Below are positions 17,342 to 42,900 of a stretch of 64,000 bases of DNA, in pieces. Made by a program: the position numbers and the translations under genes. The stretch comes from a virus (lineage: Duplodnaviria; Caudoviricetes), in the IMG/VR virus record IMGVR_UViG_3300028048_000052, positions 96,001-160,000 of that record; one strand, written 5' to 3'. Numbering within the stretch: the stretch's first letter is position 1; the number at the start of each line of letters is the position of its first letter. The notes under the pieces are model-generated. The model was not told the DNA's origin. It saw nothing but the letters and a program-made list of their open reading frames with translations, and made no database searches.

Positions 17342-17944
17342 ATGTTTACAATTTATTTACATAAAAATAAAATTAATAATAAAGTTTATATTGGACAAAC
17401 ATCGCAACCACCAATAGATAGATGAAAAAATGGTAAAGGTTATACGCAATGCTATCATTTTAATAATGCAATACAAAAATATGGGTGAGATAATTTTGAG
17501 CATATTATTTTAGAGCAAGGAGATTGAACGCAAGAAGAGGCGAATTATAAAGAACAATATTATATTAATTTATATGATAGTACAAATATAAATAAAGGTT
17601 ATAATATTACTAATGGTGGAAGTAATAATATTTCACCAAATGCTTTGCCAAATGCAATAAATTGAATGCGAGCACATCCTGATTTTGGATTAGCGAGGGC
17701 CAATGATATGTTAAAATGACAAAAAGAACATCCAGATGACGTTAAAAAGCAAAGAGAAAGAGCACAAAAAAAAATGGCAGAAGCAAGAAAAAGAAAAGTA
17801 TTATGTGTAGAAACTGGTGTTATTTATGAAAGTGCGTCAGAAGCAGCAAGACAAAACAAAGGAACAACACAAAGTAAAATTTGTATGGTGTGCAGAGGAC
17901 AAAGAAAAACGGCGGGAAGATTACATTGGAAATATGCTGAATAA
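17342..17944 (+). mobile_element. Free-standing GIY-YIG homing endonuclease (5 TGA=Trp)
   Basis: TIY..NKINNKVYIGQT, AIQKYG*DNFEH, GYN; NUMOD1-like C-terminus; AGGAGG RBS. Confidence 0.85.
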
Positions 17945-19538: not shown

Positions 19539-20480
19539 ATATATATTAGTTGTGGCGTTGCGTTTGTTATAGGAATTTTATTTGCTTATTTAATTTTAAA
19601 ATCCAAATTAGATCATGTAGTTAAAATTAATGAAGATAATATAAAAAGAAATAAACAAATACAAAATGAGGTCATTTATTGAGAAAAGAAAAAAGAAGAA
19701 CTAAATAGCGAATATATAGATTTAAAATCATCTGCTTCATCTCTTGATGCTGAAATAAAAATAAAATCAGAAACGGCTCAAAATATTATTAATTCAAAAA
19801 TTGAATTAATGAAAGAACAAATGGATAGAAAAGCAGAAGATTTAGCAAATCAATATCAATCTGCTATTGATGATGCAAATTCTCAATATTTAGAAATATT
19901 AGCAGATTTATCCAAAACATCAATCGATACAACGGAATCAATTATTGAATTAGAAAAAAAATTAAAGGAATTAAAATCAAAGCATGATGCAGTAGTTGAA
20001 GATTATAAACGAGCGCAAGAGATGAATAATAAAAAAGATTTCTATCGTTTACAATTAACAGATATTGATTTAAAAGAAATAAAAAAATTGCGTGAGGTTG
20101 AGCCATATTTACGTGATGCGCGTCCACTTAATAAAGTCATTTGAAGTGTTTATTATGAGCACCCATATACTGATTTAACTGGGCGTATTATGGGAAGAGA
20201 AAAAAGAACGGGTATTTATAAACTAACAAATCTTACTAATAATATGGTTTATATAGGACAAGCTGTTAATATTGCAGAAAGATGAAAACAACATATTAAG
20301 TGCGCTATTGGGGCCGATAGTGCGCCTAATAATAAATTGTATCCGGTAATGCGGGCAATTGGCCCAGAAAATTTTACTTTTGAGATTATGGAAGAATGTT
20401 TGCCAGAAGAGTTAAATGAAAGAGAACAATATTGGCAAGATTTCTATAAGGCGAAAGAGTTTGGTTATAGTGTAAGATAG
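19539..20480 (+). CDS. TM plus coiled-coil plus C-terminal GIY-YIG protein (3 TGA=Trp; start uncertain)
   Basis: Frame open from 19527 to TAG 20478; N-terminal hydrophobic helix; TGIYKLTN..MVYIGQAVNIAER*KQH. Confidence 0.75.
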
Positions 20481-20780: not shown

Positions 20781-22575
20781 ATGAAATTAGAAAATGTAAG
20801 AGTATATAATATTTCAACAGCGTTATTTGGAATGAGAAATCCAAAAAATTCTTGGGATAGAAGAGATACCAAGAGTGGAATTGCAACTTATGATGAAGTT
20901 GTTAAAATGGCTGAAGATAGCGAATTTGATTTAAAAGATATCCTTTTGTATCAAGATGATAATGAAATGTGCGAATATTGTGTTATCGGCCCTAACGATA
21001 TGAAGCTAGCAAAAGTATTAAAAGATGCTGGCACAGAACACCGTAAATATTTAAGACAAATCTTTGTTACAATGGATATTACTGCACCGTTATATTGGTA
21101 GACTTTCTGCCAAAAAATACTTTACCGCTTCATCAGCGGGGTCGCATTAGCGGCTAACGGGGAAGCCTAAACTGAAAAGCATGGTAATCCCGTGGGAAAT
21201 ATAAAAAATAATAAATTAAATGTGTCAAAATATATTAATTCTTATTATATGTTTCTTATATATAATAGGAGGATTAAATAATGAAACAAACAAGAAATTG
21301 TGGTCCACGAAAAGATTTAAGTGGAAAAAAATTTGGTAAATTAACTGCAATATATTATGTTCCAAAAGGAAAATGACATTGCAAATGTGATTGTGGAAAT
21401 GAATTAGATGTGGACACAAGAAATTTAAATAGTAATCATACACAAAGCTGTGGCTGCTTACAAAAAGAAAATGTAAGAAAAAATGCTATTGATATGACCG
21501 GGTATGAAAATAATGGTATTAAAGTTATATCAAAAGCCGAATCTGATAAAAATGGTTACGCTCATTGAAATTGTGAATGTAAAATATGTGGAAGAAAATT
21601 TACTTCTGCTGGTTCAGCTATTAGACAAGGTCTTGTTCAAAGTTGTGGATGCGTTCATTCATTAAACGAGCAATTAATAACAAAAATGTTATTAGAAAAT
21701 AATATAGATTTTGCTAGAGAATATACTTTTGGAGATTTAAAAGGAGTTAATGGTGGGGCATTAAGATTTGATTTTGCGATATTTAAAGATAAAAAATTAT
21801 CTCATTTAATTGAATTTAATGGAAAACAACATTACGAAAAATCAAAAGGTAGTTGAGAAAAAGAATTTGACACATTACAAAAAAATGATAAAATAAAAAA
21901 AGAATATTGTGAAAAAAATAATATTAAATTAATTATCATAAAATATGACCAACAATATTCTTTAAAAGATTTATTATAATTATAAACCTGTAGAGACTAT
22001 CCCGGGTGAGACTGGGAGTACGGCTTCTATTGATACGAAGTTGGAAATGGTATTCTCTTTAAATAAAGAGTAAAAGATAGTCCAATCTATTATGAAAATA
22101 ATAGATAATTGGGAAAGAATTTGATACCTATAAAATCGGTACAACATCCAATAGCCAAAGTACGATGCATAAGATGGCGGCTAAACCAATTACATTAGAT
22201 TGCTTTGAGATTGGTGATTATGAAAAAGATTTAGTTTTTGAAGAAAGCACAGCAGGTGAGCATTCTTGGGATTATCAGTGTAAAGTGGACCACGTTATAG
22301 GTGGAGAAAGCGAAGGCACTTATTATTGGGATAAATGCTACATTAAATTCTTGGAAATGTTGCGTTTAAAATATCTTGAAACAAAAGATATGCGCTACTG
22401 GAAAGAGTTAATTAGATGGCTTCCAGAAAGCTGGTTACAGACAAGAACAATTACTTTAGATTATGAAGTATTGAGTAGAATGTACCAACAGAGAAAAGAC
22501 CATAAATTAAGTGAGTGGCATTGGTTCTGTGACCGGATTGCTGATATGCCATATGCAAAAGACTTGATTTTATAA
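20781..22575 (+). CDS. ThyX-like (flavin-dependent thymidylate synthase-like) protein; exons 20781-21099 and 22112-22575
   Basis: Splicing restores EHRKYLRQI..TAPLYW|WKEFDTYKIGT..NSQSTMHK...LP...RKDHKLSEW. Confidence 0.75.
21100..22111 (+). ncRNA. Group I intron in the thyX-like gene
   Basis: Exon ends in U; P1 TTGGT|AG pairs with CTGCCAA (U.G); core GTAGAGACTA...AAGATAGTCC; terminal G; frame restored. Confidence 0.9.
21281..21979 (+). mobile_element. Intron-encoded endonuclease (Cys-rich repeats plus Vsr/EDxHD-like domain; 3 TGA=Trp)
   Basis: KFGKLT..K*HCKCDCG..SCGC repeats; LRFDFAI..IEFNGKQHY..D. Confidence 0.8.
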
Positions 22576-28837: not shown

Positions 28838-29578
28838 GTGCCAAAATTAATTGATTTGACCGGGAAAAAATTTGGAAAACTTATTGTAAAAGAAAGAGCA
28901 CCAAATAAAAATAACCAAGTATGTTGATTATGTAAATGTGATTGCGGGAATGAAGTAATTGTCACAAGAAGAGAATTATTAACTGGACATACTAAATCGT
29001 GTGGGTGTTATCGTAAAGAGATTACCGCAAAAAGAAATAAAGAAATAAAACCTAAAAAATTAGATGGGTTAAGATTTGGCAAATTAACTGTTTTAAAGCC
29101 AACTGAATTACGAGATACAAATGGCGCAATAATTTGAGAGTGTGTTTGTGATTGTGGAACACATACAATGGTTCGTGGAAATTTATTAGTTAATGGAATG
29201 ATACAGAGTTGTGGATGTGTAAAATCACAAGGAGAACAAAAAATTATTGACATTTTAAAAAAATATGATATAATTTATGAAAAAGAAAAAACTTTTGAAA
29301 CATGCCGTTATCCAGAAACAAATTTCTTATGTCGTTTTGATTTTTATGTTAATAATAAATATTTAATAGAATTTGATGGTGAACAACATTTTAAAAAAAG
29401 TAAATATAATAATAGTTGAAATACAGAACAACATTTAAAAGAAACTAAAATGCATGATGAATATAAAAATAATTGGTGTAAAGAAAATAATATCCCATTA
29501 ATTAGAATTCCTTACAACCATTTAAATGAATTAAAAATAGAAGATTTAATGTTAGAAACAAGTAAATTTGTTATTTAA
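28838..29578 (+). mobile_element. Free-standing endonuclease, paralog of the thyX-intron ORF (3 TGA=Trp)
   Basis: GTG start after GGAGG; DLTGKKFGKL..C*LCKCDCG..SCGC twice; RFDFY..IEFDGEQH. Confidence 0.8.
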
Positions 29579-29596: not shown

Positions 29597-31327
29597 ATGA
29601 AATATATAATGCGTGGAGATTGAAATGAAAATAATAAAACTGCGCTTGTACGGGTTTTATTGAATAGGGGAATGAAAGAAGAAGATATTGAGCATTATTT
29701 AAATACAACAGACGATGATTTAATTGACCCATCCTTAATTGAAAATATACAAGAAGGCACTCAAATGCTTTTAAAACATATTAATGCCAACAATGATATT
29801 TATATTCAAGTAGATTCAGACGTTGATGGTTATACAAGTTCAGCCATTTTAATTAATTACTTGTATAAAGCATATCCAGATTTTGCTAAAACGCATATTA
29901 CCTATGGTCTTCATGAAAATAAAGAACATGGTATTGATATGGATGCTATTAAAGATAATATTAAATTAGTTGTTGTCCCAGATGCTGGATCAAACGAATT
30001 TGATTTACATGCTGAACTTAAATATAATGGGATTGATGTATTAATTATAGACCACCATAACGCAGAGGGCTATTCTGATTATGCGTGCGTAATTAATAAT
30101 CAAATTGGTAACTACCCGAATAAAGATTTATCTGGGGCTGGCATGGTTTATAAATTTTGTTGCTATCTTGATAAATATTTAGGTTTTGATTTTGCAGATG
30201 ATTTTATTGATTTGGCGGTGTTTGGGATAATCGCTGATGTAATGCCACTTACCAATTTTGAAACAAGAAGAATGATTGTTAAAGCAATAGATAATTTTAG
30301 AAGTCCATTTTTAAATGTTCTTGCTTCAGCTAATAGCTTTCAAAGTGGAGTTCAAATAGTTCCAAAGACATTCTCTTGGACTATGGCGCCAGCAATAAAT
30401 GCTATTTGTAGAATGGGTAATTTAGAAGATAAAAAAATTGTATTTGAAGCAATGCTTGAAAAAAATAGCGAATTAGAAGTTCCATCAACCAAAAGAGGGC
30501 ACAAAGGTGAAACAGAGTTATTAATTGAGCAGGCGGCAAGAGTTGCTAAAAATGTTAAAGCTGGACAAGACAGAGCAAGAGATAAATTATGTGAACAGTT
30601 TGAGCAATTAATTAATGATAAAAATTTACTTGAAAATCAAATCTTGGCTCTTAAAATGCCAGATTCAACCCAAGAGGATAGAAATATAACTGGGCTTGTT
30701 GCTAATAAATTAATGAGTAAATATCAAAGACCAGTTCTTGTACTGAGTAAAAAAGTATTAGAAGATGGCTCGGTTCATTGGGCCGGCTCTGGCAGAAATG
30801 GCGGAGATGGGTTAATTAGTTTTCAAAAATTCTTAATAGATTCAAATTTAGTAGATTGGGCACAGGGGCACGACAATGCATTTGGCGTTTCTATTCCCGA
30901 TGAAAATTTCTCTGCTTTGATACAATATGGGAATAAAGAATTGGCTAACTTTGATTTTACTCCAAAATATAAAATAGATATAGTATATTATGGGACAAAT
31001 ATCGATATTGGTGATATTGCTTCTATTGCTGATAATAATGATTTATGGGGAGAGGGTCTTGAAGAACCGAAGATTCTTATAAAAGATTTACCCATCAATT
31101 CAGCGCTTGCTGATATATCACCGAGAGGTTATTTTAAAATATCACTTGGATCTGAGTTAGATATTGTTAAAATGCGAATGGATTTTGATGAGTTTGATAA
31201 AATTATAAAAGGACCAAATAGTAAATTAGATATTATTGGAACTTGTTTCCGTAATGTTGGGTTTGGCGATGGTTTACAAATTAGAATTGAAGATTATGAA
31301 TTAAAAACACAGCAATGGTATTTTTAA
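29597..31327 (+). CDS. recJ: RecJ-like DHH ssDNA exonuclease (TGA at codon 9)
   Basis: DSDVDG, IIDHH, ADVM, GSGR, QGHDNAFG; ATG 29597 after GGTGGT is in frame through TGA 29621. Confidence 0.88.
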
Positions 31328-31408: not shown

Positions 31409-31924
31409 ATGATTATAAAATGTAAATGTACTGTTTGCGGGAAAGAATTTGACGCATTAAAAAGTACTGCAAAATATTGTAGTAAAGAGTGTATGAATAA
31501 AGCGCGCAGAATTAGGGTGGCAGAAGAAAAAAATAATCCTAAAAAAAGAAATGAAAACGGGATGACAGAAAAAACATGCTTGCTTTGTGGGAAACCGTTT
31601 TCTCCTAAAACCGCTGCGGCGAATAATAGAAGCTGTTGCTATGAATGTATGCCAGATGGAGTTCAATTGAGACGTGGAGATTTTTTAGCAAAAATTAAAA
31701 AAATACGCGGAGGGCAATGTGAGCGATGCGGTTATCATACTTCTATAAAAGCGCTTGAATTTCACCATTTAGATCCAAACAAAAAAGATTTTACTATTAG
31801 TAATGATCATTTTAAATTAGAAGAGGCTTTAGAAGAAAGTAAAAAATGCGTATTGTTATGCGCAAATTGCCATAGAGAACTTCATGATGATGTTTGGAAA
31901 ATTGAAGAATTAGGATATAAATAA
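31409..31924 (+). mobile_element. HNH endonuclease with N-terminal Zn fingers
   Basis: CERCGY..LEFHHLDP...KCVLLCANCHRELH. Confidence 0.8.
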
Positions 31925-31940
31925 GAAAGGGGGCGATATA

Positions 31941-33112
31941 ATGGAACTTACAGTAAAACAACAGGAAGCTCTTACGCTTGCTGTTTCTCGCTATGTCAAT
32001 GGAGAAGCATACACATGTATTAGCGGGTATGCTGGAGTTGGTTAGGTAAAACAACATTGATTAGTTTCATTATTTCCGCTCTTGGATTACAACCATGGGA
32101 AGTTTGCTATATTGCCTATACCGGTAAGGCAGCGCTGGTATTAAAAAGCAAGGGATGCGAAAATGCCATGACAGCACATAGATTGTTATATATTTCTCAT
32201 CCAAAAGCAGATGGAACTTTCTTTCATATGCCACGAAGACCTTTACCACCTTATAAAATAATTGTATGTGATGAGATATCAATGTTACCAAAAGATATGT
32301 GGGAGCTTCTTTTATCTCATCATATTCATGTTATTGCGCTTGGAGATCCGGCCCAATTACCTCCTATCACAGAAGATAATGGGGTATTGGCAAATCCGCA
32401 TATATTTTTGGATGAAATCGTACGTCAAGCCCAAGATAATGAAATCATTAAATTGAGCATGGATATTCGTGAAGGAAAACCTTTACAATTATTCAATGGT
32501 AACCAAGTTAAAGTAATTGATAAAAAAGATTTAAAATCGGGAATGTATACTTGGGCTGATCAAATTATTTGTGCTAAAAATGAAACACGACGCCAAATAA
32601 ATGAGTATATGCGTGAAATGACATTGGGTATGAAAACACCCGACCCAGTGGAAGGTGATAAAGTCATCTGTTTAAAAAACGATTGGGATAGTATGAACGC
32701 TTATGGAGATATGTTAGTTAATGGCACCATTGGAACTATTTCTTATATTCGATATGATGATAATAATAAATATTTAAAACCCCATGTTGAATGGGATTTA
32801 TTACCAGATGGTTATATCCCATCTGAGTGTGCTGAAGATCCATATTTTAGAGATTTGAATATTGACTATAAATTATTAACAACTGGTGAACCAACAGTTA
32901 CACAAAAAAATTTTAGAAAATTTCCTCAAATTTGGAAACCAAAAGAATTTGATTATGGTTATTGTATTACCTGTTGGAAAGCGCAGGGTGATCAGTATAA
33001 TAAAGTATTATTATTTGAAGAGGGATTCCCTTTTGAGCCAGAAGAGCATAGAAGATATCTCTATACTGGTATTACAAGAGCAGTTGAAAAATTGGTAGTC
33101 GTAAGGAAATAA
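31941..33112 (+). CDS. RecD/Dda-like SF1B helicase interrupted by a 5-nt insertion in Walker A
   Basis: MELTVKQQEA..ISGYAGVG[TAGGT]KTTLI; DEISM, GDPAQLPP, RQ, KAQG, YTGITRA downstream. Confidence 0.85.
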
Positions 33113-33187
33113 CTTTGGGCATTTTAAGATTGACTATTTTATAAAAAAATGGTATAATAAATAGAGTAAGAAAGAGTAGAAAAACAT

Positions 33188-34552
33188 ATGAAAAATGAAT
33201 ATGGTTATCTTCCAAATGAGACGCCATCGTTAGGTAAATTACTTTTATATGCTTTACAGCAGGTAATTGTAATGTTTCCAGCGACAGTTACCGTAGCATT
33301 GATTACTGGTTTCCAAGTATCAACAACGATATTCGCGTCAGGTTTGGCGACTTTGTGTTTTATTTTAATTACACAAAAGAAAATTCCTTTGTACTACGGC
33401 TCAAGTTTTGCTTATTTATCTGCTGTTAGCGCAATGGTTATGGCAGAAGGAACTGCTGATCAAATTGCAAGTTGGCAGGCAACAGGAATTTTACCGACTG
33501 AATTAATTTCAAAAGCACAATTTGGAATTATTATGTCTGGATTTGTATCAATTGCGGCTGGATTGCTTGTAAAGAAATTTGGTAAAGACTCTGTTGAAAA
33601 AGTTCTCCCGGCTTCAATTACTGGTCCAGTATCTATGGTCATTGGTCTTACGTTAGCTGGAAACGCTTTAAGTGATGCTATTTCAGCTGGTAATACCGCA
33701 TGGTGCATTGTCGCATTAATTACTTTAATTTCTACTATGATTTATTCAAGATATTTAAAAGGATTATTGGGACAATTACCATTATTATTGGGTGCAGTTA
33801 CTGGTTGTATTGTAGCTGGATTATTCGCATTATTTGGAATTAATTTATTTAGAAGTATTCCAACAGAAGCACTTAATTCACTTTGGTCTTTTGGCCCATT
33901 TGCAATTCCAGCTTTCAGTTTACCGAAATATAGTTGGGCGGCTTTAATTGGAATTATGCCAATTGCTATTGCCACTATTCCAGAGTCAACTGCGCATGTT
34001 TATCAGTTAGATCTTTATGTGCAAGATATTGCAAAAAAGAAAGGTGTTGAAGCTGATAGAATTGAAAATCTATTAGATAAAAATTTAATTGGAGATGGTT
34101 TGTGCGACATGATTTCTGGACTTATCGGTGGTCCAGCTGGAACAAATTATGGCGAAAATATTTCCACAATGGCGATTACGAGAGTATTTAGTATTCCTGT
34201 GTTAATTGCCGCTAGTATTATTGCAATGATAATTTCTTGTTTTACGCCTTTAATTCAAGGAATTTATGCTATTCCGTTAGCTGTAATTGGTGGTTTAGAG
34301 ATTTATCTCTTTGGAGCAATCGCAGCGCAAGGTATGGCAATTATGATAGATAAAAAAGTAGATATGTTTGATAGTAAAAATATTGCTGTTATTGCCACAA
34401 TTGTTATTGTTGGTATTGGTGGACAATATGCATTTGGTGGAAATATTCCATTGTTTGGAATGAATATTCCTTGCGTTGCTGGGGCAGCGATTGCTGGTAT
34501 TCTAATTAATGCTTTATTATCGATAAAGAAAAAAGGAGTAATGAATGAATAA
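33188..34552 (+). CDS. NCS2 uracil/xanthine permease (UraA/PyrP-like)
   Basis: YYGSSFAY, ESTAH, GDG, TNYGEN signature; multiple TM segments. Confidence 0.9.
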   Translation: MKNEYGYLPNETPSLGKLLLYALQQVIVMFPATVTVALITGFQVSTTIFASGLATLCFILITQKKIPLYYGSSFAYLSAVSAMVMAEGTADQIASWQATGILPTELISKAQFGIIMSGFVSIAAGLLVKKFGKDSVEKVLPASITGPVSMVIGLTLAGNALSDAISAGNTAWCIVALITLISTMIYSRYLKGLLGQLPLLLGAVTGCIVAGLFALFGINLFRSIPTEALNSLWSFGPFAIPAFSLPKYSWAALIGIMPIAIATIPESTAHVYQLDLYVQDIAKKKGVEADRIENLLDKNLIGDGLCDMISGLIGGPAGTNYGENISTMAITRVFSIPVLIAASIIAMIISCFTPLIQGIYAIPLAVIGGLEIYLFGAIAAQGMAIMIDKKVDMFDSKNIAVIATIVIVGIGGQYAFGGNIPLFGMNIPCVAGAAIAGILINALLSIKKKGVMNE

Positions 34553-35909
34553 TCTTTTAGAGAAATGGTTTCATTTGAAAGAGAATGGCACTACATTAAC
34601 AACCGAGTTAATTGCTGGTCTCACTACTTTTGCGGCAATGGCATATATTATTGTCGTAAATCCTGCTACATTGGCTGGGTTTGGAGAACCCGGAGCGATG
34701 TTTATTGCTACAATCTTTGCATCTGCGCTTAGTACGGCTCTGCTTGGTTTAATCGCTAATATCCCATACGCCGCGGCGCCGGGACTTGGGTTAAACAACA
34801 CCGCCGCCAACATCCTTGCTGGCTATACAGCTTACCTCGTAGGACTTAGCCCAGAAGGCATTATCGCAGTTGTCTTGCTCTCTGGTTTAATTAATGTATT
34901 AATTACAGTTACAAATATTCGTAAGCATATTATTAAAGCAATTCCAGAGTCATTACAGAATGCAATTAGTGCGGGTATTGGTATGTTTATTATCTATATC
35001 GCATTATGCAATGTTGGTTTGGTTCATTTCACTTTCGGTATTCCTGCTATTAGCACGACAATTGATTTTAAAGTATTATTAGTATTCATTGTTGGCTTAT
35101 GTTTAACGGTTTATCTCTTATTAAAAAATGTCAATGGCGCAATCTTAATCGGTATTGTTGTTGCTACTCTCTTAGGTATTCCTCTTGGAGTAACTAATTT
35201 CAGCACTGGTTATAGTATTGGTGAAGCATTTACTGCTTATGGCCATTGGTTTGGAACTCCTATTACAAAGGGTCTGCCAGAATTATTTAGTGATTTAAGA
35301 AATATCATTCCTATCTTGATTGGTATTTTATCCTTCTCGTTGTCTGATATTTTTGATACAATTGGTACATTCATTGGTACTGGTAAAGTTAGTGGTATCT
35401 TTAATGACGCTGATTTAGAAGATATGGAAAGCGGTTCTGGTTTTGATTCAAAAATGGATAAAGCATTATTCGCAGATGCAATTGCTACTCCTATTGGTGC
35501 TTTACTCGGCACATCTTCAACTACTACTTATGTTGAATCTGCGGCTGGTATCGGCGCTGGCGGTCGTACAGGATTAACCTCTATCGTTGTAGCATTATGC
35601 TTCTTATTATCATTACCATTCGCTGGTTTCGTTAGTGGTATCCCATCAGCGGCAACAGCTCCTGCATTAATCGTAGTTGGTGTTATGATGATGGCATCAT
35701 TAAGAGAGATTAATTGGAATGATTTAGAAGAAGCAATCCCTGCAATGTGTGCAAGCGTGCCTATGGCATTAACCTATGGTATTACAAATGGTATTATGTT
35801 AGGTTTCTGGGCATACACGTTTGTAAAACTTTGTAAAGGAAAGATAAAAGAAGTCCATCCAATCATTTTGGTAAGTGATATCTTGTTTATCTTAAACTAC
35901 CTAATGTAA
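34545..35909 (+). CDS. NCS2 AzgA/PbuG-like guanine/hypoxanthine permease
   Basis: TELIAGLTTF.AMAYII.VNP, APGLGLN, DIFDTIGT, TTYVESAAG..GGRTGL. Confidence 0.92.
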   Translation: MNNLLEKWFHLKENGTTLTTELIAGLTTFAAMAYIIVVNPATLAGFGEPGAMFIATIFASALSTALLGLIANIPYAAAPGLGLNNTAANILAGYTAYLVGLSPEGIIAVVLLSGLINVLITVTNIRKHIIKAIPESLQNAISAGIGMFIIYIALCNVGLVHFTFGIPAISTTIDFKVLLVFIVGLCLTVYLLLKNVNGAILIGIVVATLLGIPLGVTNFSTGYSIGEAFTAYGHWFGTPITKGLPELFSDLRNIIPILIGILSFSLSDIFDTIGTFIGTGKVSGIFNDADLEDMESGSGFDSKMDKALFADAIATPIGALLGTSSTTTYVESAAGIGAGGRTGLTSIVVALCFLLSLPFAGFVSGIPSAATAPALIVVGVMMMASLREINWNDLEEAIPAMCASVPMALTYGITNGIMLGFWAYTFVKLCKGKIKEVHPIILVSDILFILNYLM

Positions 35910-35913
35910 AAAG

Positions 35914-35970
35914 AATGGGTGGGGCTTAGGGCTCCACCCATTGATTTTTTTTATAAAATATGATATAATA
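35914..35970 (+). terminator. Terminator overlapping the dnaE sigmaA-like promoter
   Basis: AATGGGTGGGGC-ttagg-GCTCCACCCATT hairpin, then TTGATT-N17-TATAAT. Confidence 0.65.
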
Positions 35971-36010
35971 TAAATGTAAAAATAGGAAGAAAGTGAGGTG
36001 ATATAGAATA

Positions 36011-39000
36011 ATGAGAACATATTTTGGAGCACATAACCATACTCATTATTCCTAGGTAAGTCCAATTTGCGACTAATTGATTGTATCAATAAACCAAAGG
36101 ATTTAATTAATAAAGCAATAGAGTTGGGGTTATCTGGTATCGCTATAACTGATCATGAAAGTTTATCCGCAGGGATGGAAGTTAATCAATATGCAAAAAA
36201 GATTCACGAAAAAAATCCTAATTTTGTTATTGCATTAGGTAATGAAATTTATTTAACAGATGATAGAAGTAGTGGGCAGAAATATTATCATTTTATTATA
36301 ACAGCAAAAAATAAAAGAGGTTATAGAGCATTAAAAGAATTAAGTTCAATCGCTTGGTATAATATGTATAGTGATAGAGGTATGGAAAGAGTTCCAACTT
36401 TAAAAAGCGAATTGAAAGAGGTAATGAAAAATTATAAAGGTGATGTAATAGCACAAACTGCTTGTATTGGTGGTGAATTATCTCAATTAATTCTTGAAAT
36501 GGAACATGCGAGAGAAATTAATGATAAAGAGAATGCGAATACATCTTATTTAAAGATTAGAGAATTTATTGATTTTTGTATTGATGTATTCGGCAAAGAT
36601 GATTTTTTTATTGAGTGTGCGCCAGCGAATAATCCCGACCAGATTAAAGTAAACAAGAAATTAATTCAAATAGCGAAAGTTTATGGATTAAGAATGATAT
36701 TTGCGACAGACGCACATTATTTAAGACCAGAAGATAGAAGTGTTCATAAAGCATTTTTAAATTCAAAAGATGGCGAAAGAGAAGTTGATGAATTTTATCA
36801 ATATTCATATTTAATGAATAGTGATGAAGTTGAGGAATTATTAAGTTATAGTTTTGAAAAGAAAGATATAGATTGGTTATTTGAAAATACTTTATATTTA
36901 CAAAATAAGATAGAAAATTATAGTTTAGAAAAACATCAAGATATTCCAGAAGTAAAAGTTAAAGATTATCCAAAAGTAAACAAGAAAGAAGAATATGCGG
37001 TTTTATCAAGTTTATATAACTCTGATAATATTCAAGAAAGATATTGGATTAATCAATGTGAAGAAGCATTAATTCAAAAAGGTTTAGATAAAGATAAAAG
37101 GTATTGGGATAGATTAGAAGAAGAAGCAACAACAAAAAGAATTGTTGGTGAGAAACTTCAAACTTGTATGTTTAGTTATCCAAATACTTTACAACACTAT
37201 ATTGATTTGTTTTGGCGTTGTGGTTCAACGGTTGGCGCAGGAAGAGGTTCTGCGTGTAGTGGATTAAATCATTATCTGTTGGGTATAACTCAGTTGGATC
37301 CGATTAAATGGAATTTGCCGTTTTGGAGATATTTGAATCCAGAACGAGTTGAATTAGGTGATATTGATTTGGATTTGGCGCCAAGTAGATTACAAACAAT
37401 ATTTGAAGAAATTAGAAAAGAAAGGGGAGAACTTGGTTTAGTTCAAGTTTGTACTTTTGGAACAGAAGGTACAAAATCAGCAATTCAAACAGCTTGTAGA
37501 GGTTATAGAAGTGTTGATTATCCCGATGGTATAGATGTAGATGAAGCACAATATTTATCATCGTTAATTCCAGTAGAAAGAGGATTTCAGTGGAGTATTA
37601 ATGATGTTATAAATGGAGATGCGGAAAAAGGCAGAGTGCCTGTAACTCAATTTATAAATGAGATTGAACAGTATCCGGGATTATTAGATATTGTCAAAGG
37701 CATTGAAGGATTAGTAAGTAGAAGAGGAAGTCATGCGTCGGGTGTAATTTTATTTGATGAAAATATTTATGATGATGCAGCGATTATGAGGACTCCATCT
37801 GGGGCGATTGTAACTCAGTGGGATTTACATATGCAAGAAGCCGCAGGTTCAGTTAAATATGATTTCTTATTAACATCAGTTCAAGATATTATTATTGAAA
37901 CGATTAATCTTTTACAGAAAGATGGTAAGATTGAAAAAGATTTAACTTTAAGAGAAATATATAATAAGTATTTACATCCAGAAGTATTACCGCAAGATGA
38001 TAATAAAATGTGGGATGCATTAGCAAATGGAACTGTTATAAATTGTTTCCAATTTGATAGTGCAGTTGGTTCTCAGGCAGCGAAAAAGATTAGACCTCAT
38101 ACGCCAATGGAAATGGCGGATGCTAATGGTTTAATGAGATTAATGGCAGCCGAGAAAGGCGCAGAAACTCCATTAGATAAATATGTAAGATTTAAAAATA
38201 ATATTAATTTATGGTATCAAGAGATGAAGAAATGGGGATTAACCGAAGAAGAAATGAAAACGGTTGAACCATATTTTAAATCATCTTATGGGGTACCACC
38301 ATCACAAGAACAATTGATGATGATGTTAATGGATAAAAATATTTGCGGATTTGATTTAAAAGAAGCAAACGCGGCGAGAAAAATCGTTGGTAAAAAACAG
38401 ATGGATAAGATTCCAGAGCTTCATCAAAAAGTATTAGACCAAGCCAAGAGTAAAGCGTTAGGTAAATATATTTGGGCACAAGGTGTTGGCCCGCAGATGG
38501 GTTATTCATTTAGTATTATTCATGCATTAGCATATTCATTTGTTGGTATGCAAACTTTATATTTAGCGACTCATTTTAATCCAATTTATTGGAATACGGC
38601 GTGTTTGATTGTTGACAGTGGGTCGTTAGAAGAAAGTAGTGATAGCACAAATTATAGAAAGATAGCGATAGCGATTGGTAAAATGAGAAAAGCTGGTATT
38701 AATATTAGTTTAGTTGATATTAATAAGTCAGGTTTTGGATTTGAACCAGATGCAGAAAATAATAGAGTGTTATTTGGATTAAAAGCGGTAATGGGTGTTG
38801 GCGATGAAGTCACGAATAAAATTATTGAGAATAGACCTTATAGTTCAGTAAATGATTTTATTGAAAAAGTTAATCCAAATAGGACAGCGATGGTTGCATT
38901 AATAAAAGGTGGAGCGTTTGATGTATTAGAGCCAGATAGAATCAAATGTATGAAAGATTATATTTGGGAAACTTGTGATAAGAAAAAGAGATTAACGATG

Positions 39001-39870
39001 CAGAATTTAGCGGCGTTAATGAAATATAATTTGTTCCCAAAGAATAAATATAAACAAGAAAAAAGAGTTTATGAATTTACAAGATATTTAAAAGCAATGT
39101 GTAAGTTAGATAAAGAAACTTACAAACTTGATGACAGATGTATTAAATTCTTAACTGAAATTGAAAGTGATGATTTAATAGAACAGAATGATAAGAATGA
39201 GTTTATATTAAAAGCGAAAGATTGGGATAAGGTTTATCAATTTAATATAGATAGTTTTAGAGATTATATTAATAGCCATAAAGATGAATTATTAGATAAG
39301 TTAAATAATATTATCTTCAATGAAGATATGGAAAAATATGCGAAAGGAAATATTTCATCTTGGGAAATGGAAACATTATGTTTCTATTATCACGATCATG
39401 AATTAATAAATGTTAATAATGATAAATATGGTTTAGTTGATTTCTTTGATTTAGATACAGAACCAGAAGTGGAAAGAACTTATACAACAAAAACTGGGCA
39501 TAAAGGAAATATATTTAAGTTATCAAAGATTGCGGGAACCTGTATCGCGAAAGATAAAATAAGGTCAACTGTATCATTATTAACGGTTAATGGTGTTGTT
39601 GATGTTAAATTTAGAAAAGAATATTTTAGTTTATTTGACAAACAAATATCTGAAAGAATGCCAGATGGGACGAAACATGTGGTTGAAAAATCTTGGTTTA
39701 ATAGAGGCCAGATGATTATAGTTCAAGGATTTAGAAGTGAAGATAATTTTATTCCAAGAAAATATGGAAATCAAGGTCATCAGTTATACAGAATAACAAA
39801 TATTGATAAAGATAATAATTTAATGATTCAAACAGAAAGATATAATGGCGGTTTTGATGAAGAAAATTAA
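36011..39870 (+). CDS. dnaE: DNA polymerase III alpha (DnaE-type) interrupted by an 11-nt insertion after codon 14
   Basis: MRTYFGAHNHTHYS[TAGGTAAGTCC]NLRLIDCI; AITDHE, GRGS, DIDLD, HASGV, KYDFL, YSFSIIHA. Confidence 0.93.
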
Positions 39871-39952: not shown

Positions 39953-42900
39953 ATGATGAAATATGTGATTAAACGAGATGGGCGAAGAAAGGATTTCAAT
40001 GAGGCAAAAATTGAAGCGGCTATTTTAAAAGCATTTATTGCGGTTGACGGTGAAGCAACAGATTACGCAAAAGAGAAAGCAAAAAATATAGCTGATTATA
40101 TTAATAATTTAGAACAAGAAGAATTAACAGTTGAGGAAATCCAAGATTTAGTAGAAAAAGGATTAATGAGCTGTAAAAGAAAAGATGTTGCAAAAGCCTA
40201 TATTCTTTATAGAGAAGAAAGAAGCAAAGAAAGACAAAGAAAAACAAGATTAATGGGCGTTATTAAAGAAAAATTAGATGCCTCTAATGTTGTTAATCAA
40301 AATGCTAATGTAGATGAGCACTCTTTCGGCGGAAGAAAAGGTGAAGCAACAAACGAACTGATGAAGCAGTACGCCCTTGATTATTGCGTATCTGAATTAT
40401 CAAGAAATAATCATTTAAATAATGAAATCTATATTCATGATTTAGATAGTTATGCTGTTGGTATGCATAATTGTCTTACAATCCCATTTGATAAATTATT
40501 AGCAGAAGGATTTAATACAAGACAAACTGATGTGCGCCCTGCTAGCAGCGTAAATACTGCGTTTCAATTGGTAGCTGTAATTTTTCAATTACAATCATTA
40601 CAACAATTTGGCGGTGTTAGTGCTAGTCATTTAGATTGGACTATGGTTCCATATGTCAGAAAGAGTTTCTTTAAACATTGGCGAGATGGGCATAAATTTT
40701 TATTAAATGATAATGATGCAGATAACTTAATATTTTTTGCAGATAAGTCAATTGATGATGAATATTATAAAGATGGTGCTTATGAATATGCTATGGCTAT
40801 GACACAAAGAGAGTTAGACCAAGCTGTTGAAGGCATGTATCATAATCTTAATACCCTTCAATCAAGAAGTGGTAATCAATTACCTTTTACCTCAATTAAC
40901 TATGGTACTTGCACATTGCCAGAAGGAAGAATGGTTATTAAATCATTATTAGATAAATCTATTGAAGGCGTTGGCAAAGTTAGAAAAACTCCAATTTTCC
41001 CTTGTGGAATTTTCCAATGCATGAAAGGCGTTAATAGGAAACCGGGAGATCCTAACTACGATTTATTCCAGTTAGCCTTAAAATCAACTGCTAAGAGATT
41101 ATATCCAAATTATGCCAATATTGATTGGAGCAATAACGCTGGATATGATATAAATGATCCAAAAACTTATTTTAGCACGATGGGTAAGCGAAACTTAGCT
41201 CATCTAAAATCTTTTGAACCACGCTCGTGGGTGTTCGCTTAAAGCGAGCTAACGGTTAGGCCCCTCTGGGGTGAGACCGTGCTAAGATTTATCATAATAC
41301 TCATATTGGAGAAAATATGTGAGTATATAAAATTACAAATATTCAAAATAATAAAGTTTATATTGGTCAAACAATAAGACCAATAGAGCAAAGATTTAAT
41401 CGTCATATAAATGATGCATTAAACAATATATTAGATACTCATTTTGCAAGAGCGATTAGAAAATATGGCAAAAACAATTTCAAAATTGAAATTATTGACA
41501 TGGCTCAAACGCAAGATGAATTAAATAAAAAAGAACAATATTGAATTAAATATTATAATTCTACTATTGATGGTTATAATGAAACGGATGCTATTTCTAA
41601 ATGCGGTGGTAATACTTATAAAAGTAAAACTTTAAAAGAAATGGCAGATATAGAAGAAAAAATACGAAAAACAAAAATAGGAAAATTAAATCCTATGGCT
41701 CGTAAAATTAAAAGAATAGATGTTAATACCAATGAATTTGAAATTTATGATACGATAATTGCTTGTGCAAAAGCTTGTGGTATAAAAAATGGGAAAACAT
41801 CTATTTCGCAAAGATTAAATGGGAATATAAAAACACCCTATAAAGATAAATGAATATTTGAGTATTATGATAAATAAAGTGTACAGACTATCCCTGATGA
41901 ATGTAAGGGAGTAGGGGTGGAGATAAGCACCACTCCGAAGCGGAAGACTACTTAATAGTAGAAGATATAGTCGGTACCAATGGTAACATTGGAAAAATAC
42001 GTGCAGAACGGCAAATGGCGCTGATATTAATGCAGAACCGGGCACAAACCCACAAACAAAAGATGGTAGGGGAAATATATGCCCTGTTACCATTATTTTA
42101 CCAACATTAGCAATGGAAGCAAAAGAAATTTCCGGAGATACTGTTGATAATTTCTTTGATATTTTAGAAAGAAAACTTGTTGAAGCAAAAGATATGCTTA
42201 TCGAAAGGTATGAATATATCTGTTCTCAAAGTCCAGAAAGTGCAAAGTTTATGTATGAAAATGGTACAATGTTAGGATACCACCCAGAAGAAGGAATTCG
42301 AAGTGCATTAAAGCACGGTACTCTTGCTCTTGGTCAATTGGGCTTGGCTGAAACTTTACAAATTTTAATTGGTAAAGATCATACAACAAAAGAAGGCATG
42401 GATTTAGCAAAAGAAATTGAGGAATTGTTCCAAAAGAGATGTGCAGAATTTAAACAAAAATATCATTTAAATATTGGTGTTTATTATACTCCTGCTGAAA
42501 ACTTATGCTATACAGCAATGAAAAAGTTTAAAGCAAAATATGGGGAGATTCCAAATGTAAGTGATAGGGAATATTTTACAAATTCAATTCATGTTCCTGT
42601 TTGGGTAAAGATTGACCCATTTACTAAAATTGATATTGAAAGTCAATTAACTGGCTATTCAAATGCTGGTTGTATCACTTATGTTGAATTAGAAGGCACG
42701 GCTGGTAATAACCTTGACGCATTAGAACAGTTAGTTAATTATGCCATGGATAAAGATATCCCTTATTTCGCAATCAATGTTCCAAATGATACTTGTCTTG
42801 ACTGTGGTTATACCGGCGAATTTAATGATAAGTGTCCTGTTTGCGGAAGCACCCATATCCAACAGTTAAGAAGGGTTACAGGGTACTTAACTGGTAATTA

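Follow-up and report, generated by a model that had tools for sequence, protein, structure and literature searches.

Stop-initiated gaps in the helicase and DnaE genes of a phage: association with homing endonucleases and probable translational bypassing

We analyzed a 64,000-nt stretch of DNA (the window), positions 96001–160000 of the 175,154-bp virus record IMGVR_UViG_3300028048_000052 (Duplodnaviria; Caudoviricetes; 33% G+C), which CheckV rates as 100% complete. Two of its replication genes, one for a Dda/RecD-like helicase and one (dnaE) for a DnaE-type DNA polymerase, are each interrupted near the 5′ end by a gap of 5 or 11 nt that starts with an in-frame TAG stop codon inside the DNA of a catalytic motif. 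Comparison with a close relative indicates that these inserts are real and inherited and that they arrived by recombination, each lying at a gene-conversion breakpoint or patch. Our best reading of how the genes are nonetheless expressed is that ribosomes probably cross both gaps by programmed translational bypassing over short distances, a small-scale version of the T4 gene 60/MobA system. The original prediction, made from the sequence of the window, had proposed instead that the inserts share an element, TAGGTAA-N7-TTG, serving as a dedicated cis signal that would throttle or time polymerase and helicase synthesis, possibly with a trans factor, and as a second recoding layer at UAG alongside UGA reassignment.

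Two interrupted replication genes

The two genes are laid out as follows.

31941–32042, + strand: helicase 5′ segment, 34 codons, encoding MELTVKQQEALTLAVSRYVNGEAYTCISGYAGVG; take-off codon GGT at 32040–32042
32043–32047, + strand: helicase 5-nt coding gap TAGGT; stop TAG 32043–32045, landing GGT 32045–32047; a recombination breakpoint lies here
32048–33112, + strand: helicase 3′ segment (Dda/RecD-like), beginning with the Walker A Lys and including the stop codon (phrog_325 at 2e-80, AAA_30, UvrD_C_2)
36011–36052, + strand: dnaE 5′ segment, 14 codons (MRTYFGAHNHTHYS); take-off codon TCC at 36050–36052
36053–36063, + strand: dnaE 11-nt coding gap TAGGTAAGTCC; stop TAG 36053–36055, landing TCC 36061–36063
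36064–39870, + strand: dnaE 3′ segment, 1268 codons plus stop (Pfam DNA_pol3_alpha, PHP, finger, HHH_6; phrog_405)

From ATG 31941 the helicase frame runs for 34 codons into ...GGG TAT GCT GGA GTT GGT TAG GT AAA ACA ACA TTG; from ATG 36011 the dnaE frame runs for 14 codons into ...CAT ACT CAT TAT TCC TAG GTAAG TCC AAT TTG, where the gap context is TCC-TAGGTAAG-TCC-AAT. Both TAGs are in frame with the upstream ATG, the preceding codon is repeated (GGT at +5, TCC at +11), and both gap lengths are 2 mod 3. Pfam and PHROG matches place the breaks inside catalytic motifs, Walker A GYAGVG/KTT in the helicase and PHP HNHTHYS/NLRLID in DnaE (slash at the break). Removal of 5 nt gives GYAGVGKTT and a helicase of the same length as 81 uninterrupted homologues; removal of 11 nt gives HTHYSNLRLID and a dnaE collinear with 85 uninterrupted homologues. 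The in-frame TAGs, the repeated codons, the gap lengths of 2 mod 3, the interruption of a catalytic motif and the position of the gaps within the first 35 codons had been correctly described in the original prediction, as had the two 17-mers that begin with the TAGs and agree at 12 of 17 positions (TAGGTAAAACAACATTG at 32043–32059 and TAGGTAAGTCCAATTTG at 36053–36069, both on the + strand). Gene callers would mark such polymerases and helicases as pseudogenes or misplace their starts, for example at TTG 32057 and TTG 36067 here.

The degenerate pattern TAGGTAA-N7-TTG occurs twice in the window, compared with 0.33 expected, and 3 of 100 shuffles reach two occurrences; this significance is only modest, and it is post hoc. 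TAGGTAA is not enriched in the genome, with 15 and 7 copies on the two strands versus ∼20 per strand expected from base composition. Of all TAGGT sites across the 175 kb, no others connect an upstream frame with a start codon to a long downstream frame that does not itself extend upstream. Genome-wide scans (175 kb) for genes split at TAGGT or TAGGTAA, or for any frame-joining stop, produced no third convincing case, the broad scan being too noisy to be exhaustive. One candidate hop, GCC TAG GCT at genome position 32512, was rejected as an ordinary gene end followed by a terminator.

An insert-free relative delimits conversion tracts

The close relative, contig IMGVR_UViG_3300021387_002356, encodes a helicase 96% identical (locus L001) and a DnaE 98% identical (locus L021) to those of the window, and neither insert is present. 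The relative also does without two endonuclease genes of the window, a HNH gene at 31409–31924 and another at 28838–29578 (described below). The former therefore provides a case of an endonuclease gene present or absent at the same position in close relatives: L001 positions 2888/2899 correspond to window positions 31326/31938.

Nucleotide identity of the helicase gene to L001 is ∼65% from the ATG to the gap and ∼93% past it. In dnaE the divergence is confined to a patch:

35975–36175, + strand: dnaE gene-conversion patch of ∼200 nt centered on the gap, ∼70–83% identical to L021, with flanks 98–100% identical (alignment and sliding identity against L021)

Co-conversion tracts of foreign sequence are thus present beside the endonuclease gene or target, namely the helicase 5′ part up to the gap and the ∼200-nt dnaE patch. 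Synonymous sites are saturated in both. The proportions of synonymous (pS) and nonsynonymous (pN) differences are 0.83 and 0.18 for the helicase 5′ segment against L001, and 0.56–0.90 and 0.12–0.14 for the dnaE patch against L021. Outside the tracts, the ratio of nonsynonymous to synonymous rates (dN/dS) is 0.03 for the helicase 3′ segment against L001 and 0.057 for the remainder of dnaE. Since pS is saturated while pN is low in the tracts, we conclude that foreign DNA was imported around each gap and that the peptides on both sides have remained under selection. Both halves of both genes are under purifying selection.

Gaps at the same motifs in related phages

We collected distinct loci from IMG/VR, 105 for the helicase and ∼113 for dnaE. 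Stop-initiated inserts of 1–11 nt at these motifs were found in 24 of the 105 and 16 of the ∼113, respectively, counts that, like those of gap types below, are not phylogenetically independent. That the breaks are not random errors, as the original prediction had argued, is borne out by these counterparts at the same two motifs in many related phages. Helicase breaks fall inside G-Y-A-G-x-G-K, nearly all directly after the Ala codon; that of the window is two codons later. The gaps read as follows.

Helicase, 5 nt: TAACT, TAACC, TGACT, TGACC; TAGGT in the window
Helicase, 6 nt, in frame: TGAACT, TAAGCT, TAAGTT
Helicase, 7 nt: TAAAGCT, TAACGCC, TAACGCG
Helicase, 8 nt: TGAAAGCA, TAAAGGCA, TAAGAGTA
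dnaE, after the Ser codon: TAGGTCT (L022), TAGTTCT (L185), TAACTCT (L046), TAGTGCT (L024), TAAATTT (L026/27); TAGGTAAGTCC in the window
dnaE, HxH motif, 4 nt: CAT AAT [TAAC] CAT, landing from AAT to AAC (L137, L140, L143)
dnaE, HxH motif, 5 nt: CAT [TAAAT] ACT (L010/L159)

In L022, L185 and L046 the dnaE gap measures 7 nt, and TCT serves as both take-off and landing codon; L185 is one new locus found by a degenerate DNA pattern search for hop cassettes. L022 has the same upstream sequence as the dnaE of the window but reads TCT TAGG TCT, and the window's gap looks like the L022-type TAGG plus four bases, TAAG. The genomes with the HxH-motif gaps (L137/L140/L143 and L010/L159) also carry interrupted helicases. 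The in-frame 6-nt P-loop gaps read GCC TGA ACT GGA in L162/L163, GCT TAA GCT GGC in L166 and GCT TAA GTT GGA in L175; these would be natural in-frame stop-hops, readthrough instead inserting two residues into the P-loop.

In every gap a stop codon (TAA, TAG or TGA) comes first, immediately following the final codon alignable with intact homologues, and gap lengths cover all three residue classes modulo 3. Lengths of 0, 1 and 2 mod 3, including the in-frame 6 nt, require a mechanism that is independent of length, which favors bypassing over a −1 or +1 shift. An ordinary −1 (or +2) frameshift close to the stop, giving proteins with a few extra residues, would suit the two window gaps, both being 2 mod 3 with the downstream frame open for 7–9 codons upstream of the stop. 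We nevertheless consider it very unlikely: neither site has a X XXY YYZ slippery heptamer or a downstream structure, the extra residues would fall within GxxGxGK or HxHTxYS, and one shift direction cannot serve relatives whose gaps at the same positions are of all three classes.

A 1-nt variant was noted in ten dnaE loci (L043, L044, L045, L047, L049, L050, L051, L053, L054, L089), which contain the exact RF2-type +1 shifty stop CTT TGA C at about codon 20, between the Leu and Asp codons of RLL/D and six codons past the site of the window's gap. A HNH gene lies directly upstream in five of the ten, and the 5′ hairpin of the hop-type cassettes (below) is absent.

Gaps of 5–11 nt comprise 23 distinct types. 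The last three gap bases are cognate (same codon box) to the take-off codon in 11 of them, compared with ∼0.8 expected from base composition; the remaining 12 share one of the first two bases (near-cognate), and none is unrelated. This bears on the alternative that the extra bases are removed from the mRNA, by a micro-intron, editing or cleavage and ligation, and that a continuous frame is then translated. The DNA sequence is consistent with such removal, and group I introns abound in the genome, which also encodes RNA-processing functions and whose ligase, thyX and nrdD genes are split by endonuclease-bearing inserts. Yet an RNA-level mechanism needs neither the in-frame stop with which all 23 types begin nor the cognate or near-cognate triplet with which they end, no Rfam family matched in a search of the window, and we know of no system that excises 4–11 nt. 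We therefore hold removal from the mRNA to be unlikely.

A further alternative is that the genes are broken or yield truncated products, TAGGTAA-N7-TTG being a Shine-Dalgarno-like AGGT with a TTG start 9 nt on, used in termination-reinitiation. AGGT does lie 9–10 nt ahead of TTG at both sites, and the open reading frame (ORF) listing starts both long ORFs at these TTGs. We reject reinitiation as improbable because a helicase started at TTG 32057 would lack the Walker A GKT, including its Lys, and would be inactive; because cassette-bearing relatives have TTA, CTA, CTT, ATA or TTT in place of the start codon; and because the upstream peptides are under purifying selection. Broken genes are likewise hard to reconcile with that selection, with the intact downstream frames of the roughly one quarter of a diverse phage family in which the gaps are maintained, and with the role of DnaE as sole DNA polymerase: this 100%-complete genome has a single DnaE and no PolA or PolB.

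The relatives also speak to the proposed cis signal. What stands of the recoding element family is the take-off codon, in-frame stop, short gap and matching landing codon; TAGGTAA-N7-TTG as a shared signal does not. Most of the motif is coding sequence. Its GGT serves the helicase as the landing Gly codon, its AA supplies the first two bases of Lys, and its TTG encodes the Leu of GKTTL; the TTG of dnaE also encodes a Leu, that of SNLRL, and the dnaE gaps of relatives precede TTA, TTT, CTA, CTT or ATA. GTAA fares no better, the homologous dnaE gaps reading TAGGTCT, TAGTTCT, TAACTCT, TAGTGCT and TAAATTT. A dedicated element through which a phage trans factor times polymerase and helicase synthesis could draw on the 12/17 match with its shared 7-mer TAGGTAA, and on the joint occurrence of the two recoded genes above chance: they are found together in ten genomes (table 10/12/6/63, odds ratio ∼9, after hand reclassification of six loci miscalled by script). 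The motif is, however, not conserved in homologous gaps, the near-identical relative manages without both inserts, and no candidate trans factor was found, the phage encoding no tRNA-Gly or tRNA-Ser(UCN). Such an element is the least probable of the explanations weighed here, and the resemblance between the two window sites appears best explained by coding constraint plus coincidence. The inserts may still have an incidental throttling effect.

Association with homing endonucleases

Two free-standing endonuclease genes of the window belong to families associated with the gaps:

31409–31924, + strand: HNH homing-endonuclease gene, 171 aa, directly upstream of the helicase (Pfam HNH, phrog_2255/1271)
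28838–29578, + strand: second HNH-type endonuclease gene, requiring TGA=Trp (phrog_374/559)

Homologues of the first (48–67% amino acid identity) occur upstream of the helicase only where the P-loop is interrupted. They lie within 700 nt upstream at 8 of 24 interrupted loci versus 0 of 81 intact loci (Fisher p = 2.6e-6). L048 has lost all but the final 18 codons of its HNH gene and still keeps the gap. For interrupted helicases without the HNH gene, Pfam searches of the upstream ORFs gave mostly no matches. At dnaE, HNH genes (phrog_374/559/1035) are directly upstream of 7 of the 16 recoded loci (L024, L026/27, L043, L047, L050, L051, L053) versus 6 of 85 intact ones.

No endonuclease gene adjoins dnaE in the window. 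The gene at 28838–29578 is, however, homologous to the homing-endonuclease genes beside dnaE in L026 and L043, and its family occurs directly upstream of recoded dnaE in relatives; a link between this gene and the dnaE gap of the window may therefore be proposed. From the association of insert and HNH gene, we suppose that the HNH enzyme would cleave the insert-free allele and that the insert would protect. A timing role in polymerase and helicase synthesis finds no support; the comparative data point to the inserts being scars of selfish endonuclease cassettes that would confer immunity.

More endonuclease genes, of GIY-YIG and HNH types and all needing TGA=Trp, were noted at 17342–17944, 19809–20480, 21281–21979 and 41317–41877, interrupting or flanking the ligase, thyX-region and nrdD genes. 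The replication module is heavily colonized by selfish elements.

RNA structure at the gaps

A repeat search revealed a stem at the dnaE gap:

36006–36051, + strand: perfect 10-bp hairpin GAATAATGAG/CTCATTATTC, arms at 36006–36015 and 36042–36051

Its 5′ arm spans the ATG, and its 3′ arm finishes inside the take-off codon. All six hop-type dnaE cassettes carry a stem at the take-off position, with arm sequences that differ by lineage and covary (GAATAATGAG/CTCATTATTC; ATAATGAGT/ACTCATTAT; AATACTCAG/CTGAGTATT; AATCAGTAT/ATACTGATT). These stems rank at the top, as the longest, among 58 distinct loci (Mann-Whitney p = 8e-5); the +1-type loci have none. In most helicase cassettes there is a strong hairpin that covaries; its 3′ arm stops at GGC TAC, immediately ahead of the take-off Ala codon (z = −2 to −5 versus about −1 in intact genes). 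A take-off stem-loop at the gap start is lacking, gaps of 5 and 11 nt being unable to hold one. Pairing of the mRNA as it leaves the ribosome is proposed to drive forward bypassing in gene 60 in a 2024 preprint (10.1101/2024.12.09.627546), and the position of the dnaE hairpin would fit that idea.

Proposed mechanism

In the scheme that we favor, the 5-nt helicase gap and 11-nt dnaE gap would have reached the phage by gene conversion within homing-endonuclease cassettes. An indel inside the DNA of a conserved catalytic motif plausibly destroys the endonuclease target and so would make its carrier immune. The ribosome would stall with the stop UAG in its A site while peptidyl-tRNA still occupies the take-off codon (GGU or UCC); it would then slide forward until the same tRNA re-pairs 5 or 11 nt further on, at the identical landing codon. 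Decoding would resume at AAA in the helicase or AAU in dnaE, yielding a full-length protein with the motif intact and predicted junction peptides ...YTCISGYAGVGK (helicase) and ...TYFGAHNHTHYSNLR (dnaE). The 10-bp dnaE hairpin may assist by re-forming behind the ribosome.

Traits expected of bypassing are found at both sites: identical take-off and landing codons (GGT/GGT, TCC/TCC) and a stop directly 3′ of the take-off codon. A nascent-peptide signal like that of gene 60 is doubtful, since the gap is preceded by no more than 14 residues in DnaE and 34 in the helicase; no motif is common to the two peptides. The hop itself and its efficiency are inferred.

Several points weigh against bypassing. 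Known unprogrammed short hops are inefficient, at ∼1% in classic E. coli work, which seems low for an essential polymerase unless stimulators exist. Landing is near-cognate in about half of the gap types, for example GCU to ACU, and the locus and gap-type counts carry the lack of phylogenetic independence stated above. The window's helicase has no strong 5′ hairpin (z = −0.06) but a stem of just 7 bp that stops 9 nt short of the TAG, and overall local RNA folding is not significant at either window site (z −0.75 and +0.25).

For the family as a whole, we think it somewhat likely that stop-hops of 4–11 nt, some of them in frame, are widespread in uncultured Firmicutes-type phages. Homing endonucleases would repeatedly protect their carriers through a stop-initiated micro-indel in catalytic-motif DNA (helicase P-loop, DnaE PHP HxH...YS), and a minimal cassette of 5′ hairpin, take-off codon, stop, tiny gap and cognate landing codon would rescue the gene. 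The window would have two such cassettes, that of the helicase working without the hairpin. If this is true, hopping is a recurrent solution to endonuclease self-immunity in essential replication genes, and dozens of natural variants, differing in length, in cognate or near-cognate landing and in presence of the hairpin, are at hand to dissect the minimal requirements for hopping.

Genomic setting and codon reassignment

The replication module comprises DnaB, primase, the HNH-type endonuclease gene (28838–29578), a DHH/RecJ-like gene, the 171-aa HNH gene (31409–31924), the Dda/RecD-like helicase, two xanthine/uracil permease genes, the DnaE-type polymerase and a split NrdD. Nearest cultured relatives of the polymerase are those of Enterococcus and SPbeta-like phages, at ∼40% identity. 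The two permease-family genes, at 33188–35909 between helicase and dnaE, have their own promoter-like and terminator-like sequences and are also present in the close relative. Their identity to it shifts from 78–88% up to ∼34800 to 96–100% beyond, which indicates a further recombination boundary inside the permease region, at ∼34800.

The second recoding layer at UAG that had been suggested for this phage is no second reassignment, since TAG serves as an ordinary terminator: 31 of 146 long ORFs end in it, with TAGG in 12 of these cases. TGA=Trp is required by a subset of genes, the endolysin and several homing endonucleases. The DHH/RecJ-like gene, read from ATG 29597 (window 29597–29660), has a TGA at codon 10 that the close relative shares, which implies that TGA=Trp is used in at least one early replication gene. 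This TGA, at 29626, had been tried as a hop candidate and was dismissed, its position being a conserved Trp in the relative too.

TAG is a sense codon in many relatives (L023–L029, L033, L045, L048, L074 and others), where conserved Gln positions, for example in WAD-TAG-II and GDPG-TAG-L, are TAG. Together with TGA=Trp in the window phage, this means that both reassignments occur within one phage family. L024 is such a TAG-sense phage, yet its dnaE gap begins with TAG, at least one apparent exception to any avoidance of the reassigned codon as the gap-starting stop.

A full-length tmRNA is encoded at genome C1:64817–65162, ∼31 kb before the window (L187 518–863; Rfam RF00023, 81.6 bits, E = 1e-31). 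Its neighbors are tRNAs and a group I intron-like element just below the gathering threshold (L187 245–436, 45.4 bits).

Comparison with known systems

Apart from yeast mitochondria, efficient bypassing in nature is essentially known from a single phage cassette, that of T4 gene 60 with its homologues. We found no report of helicase or DnaE micro-gaps in the literature. The gene 60 gap belongs to the MobA HNH element, which it protects from self-cleavage, and features matched codons, a stop or hungry codon and 5′ structure; its insert persists after the endonuclease gene is lost, a "hit and run" scenario (Manning & Atkins, bioRxiv 10.1101/2022.08.31.505936). That 2022 survey calls the gene 60 cassette unique.

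Much is shared with T4. In both, a HNH homing-endonuclease gene lies upstream of an essential DNA-metabolism gene; the non-coding insert is near the 5′ end of the gene, with a stop right after the take-off codon, matching take-off and landing codons and, here at dnaE, a 5′ stem-loop; and the insert moves by gene conversion and outlasts the endonuclease gene, here in L048. The gaps differ in measuring 5–11 nt rather than 50 nt, with no room inside for a take-off stem-loop, and in lying only 14 or 34 codons into the gene. The host genes are also different, here the P-loop of a Dda-like helicase and the PHP motif of DnaE, and the host gene is not split into two. The family described here moreover includes in-frame gaps. 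No sequence homology to the gene 60 cassette was noticed, though no search aimed at it was made.

Stop-hopping has been achieved on synthetic constructs in E. coli (Weiss et al. 1987, reviewed in Atkins et al. 2016, PMC5009743), at the same +5 and +6 lengths as here. Those constructs are artificial and of low efficiency, whereas the present gaps are natural and in essential genes; no natural in-frame stop-hops were known according to the 2016 review (PMC5009743). The same review describes the "byp" elements of Magnusiomyces capitatus mitochondria, many short mobile non-coding inserts in essential genes that are bypassed between matched codons. Byps are 27–55 nt long, GC-rich, mitochondrial and not tied to homing endonucleases, unlike the present gaps. 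The programmed +1 frameshift of RF2 (prfB), CUU UGA C, has its likeness in the CTT TGA C of the ten related dnaE loci, a 1-nt shifty stop without the upstream Shine-Dalgarno element and not found in the window.

The window contributes three things: a second cassette, in dnaE, in the same genome as the helicase cassette; a helicase variant that has a Gly take-off codon and no strong hairpin; and a near-identical, insert-free relative that delimits both conversion tracts.

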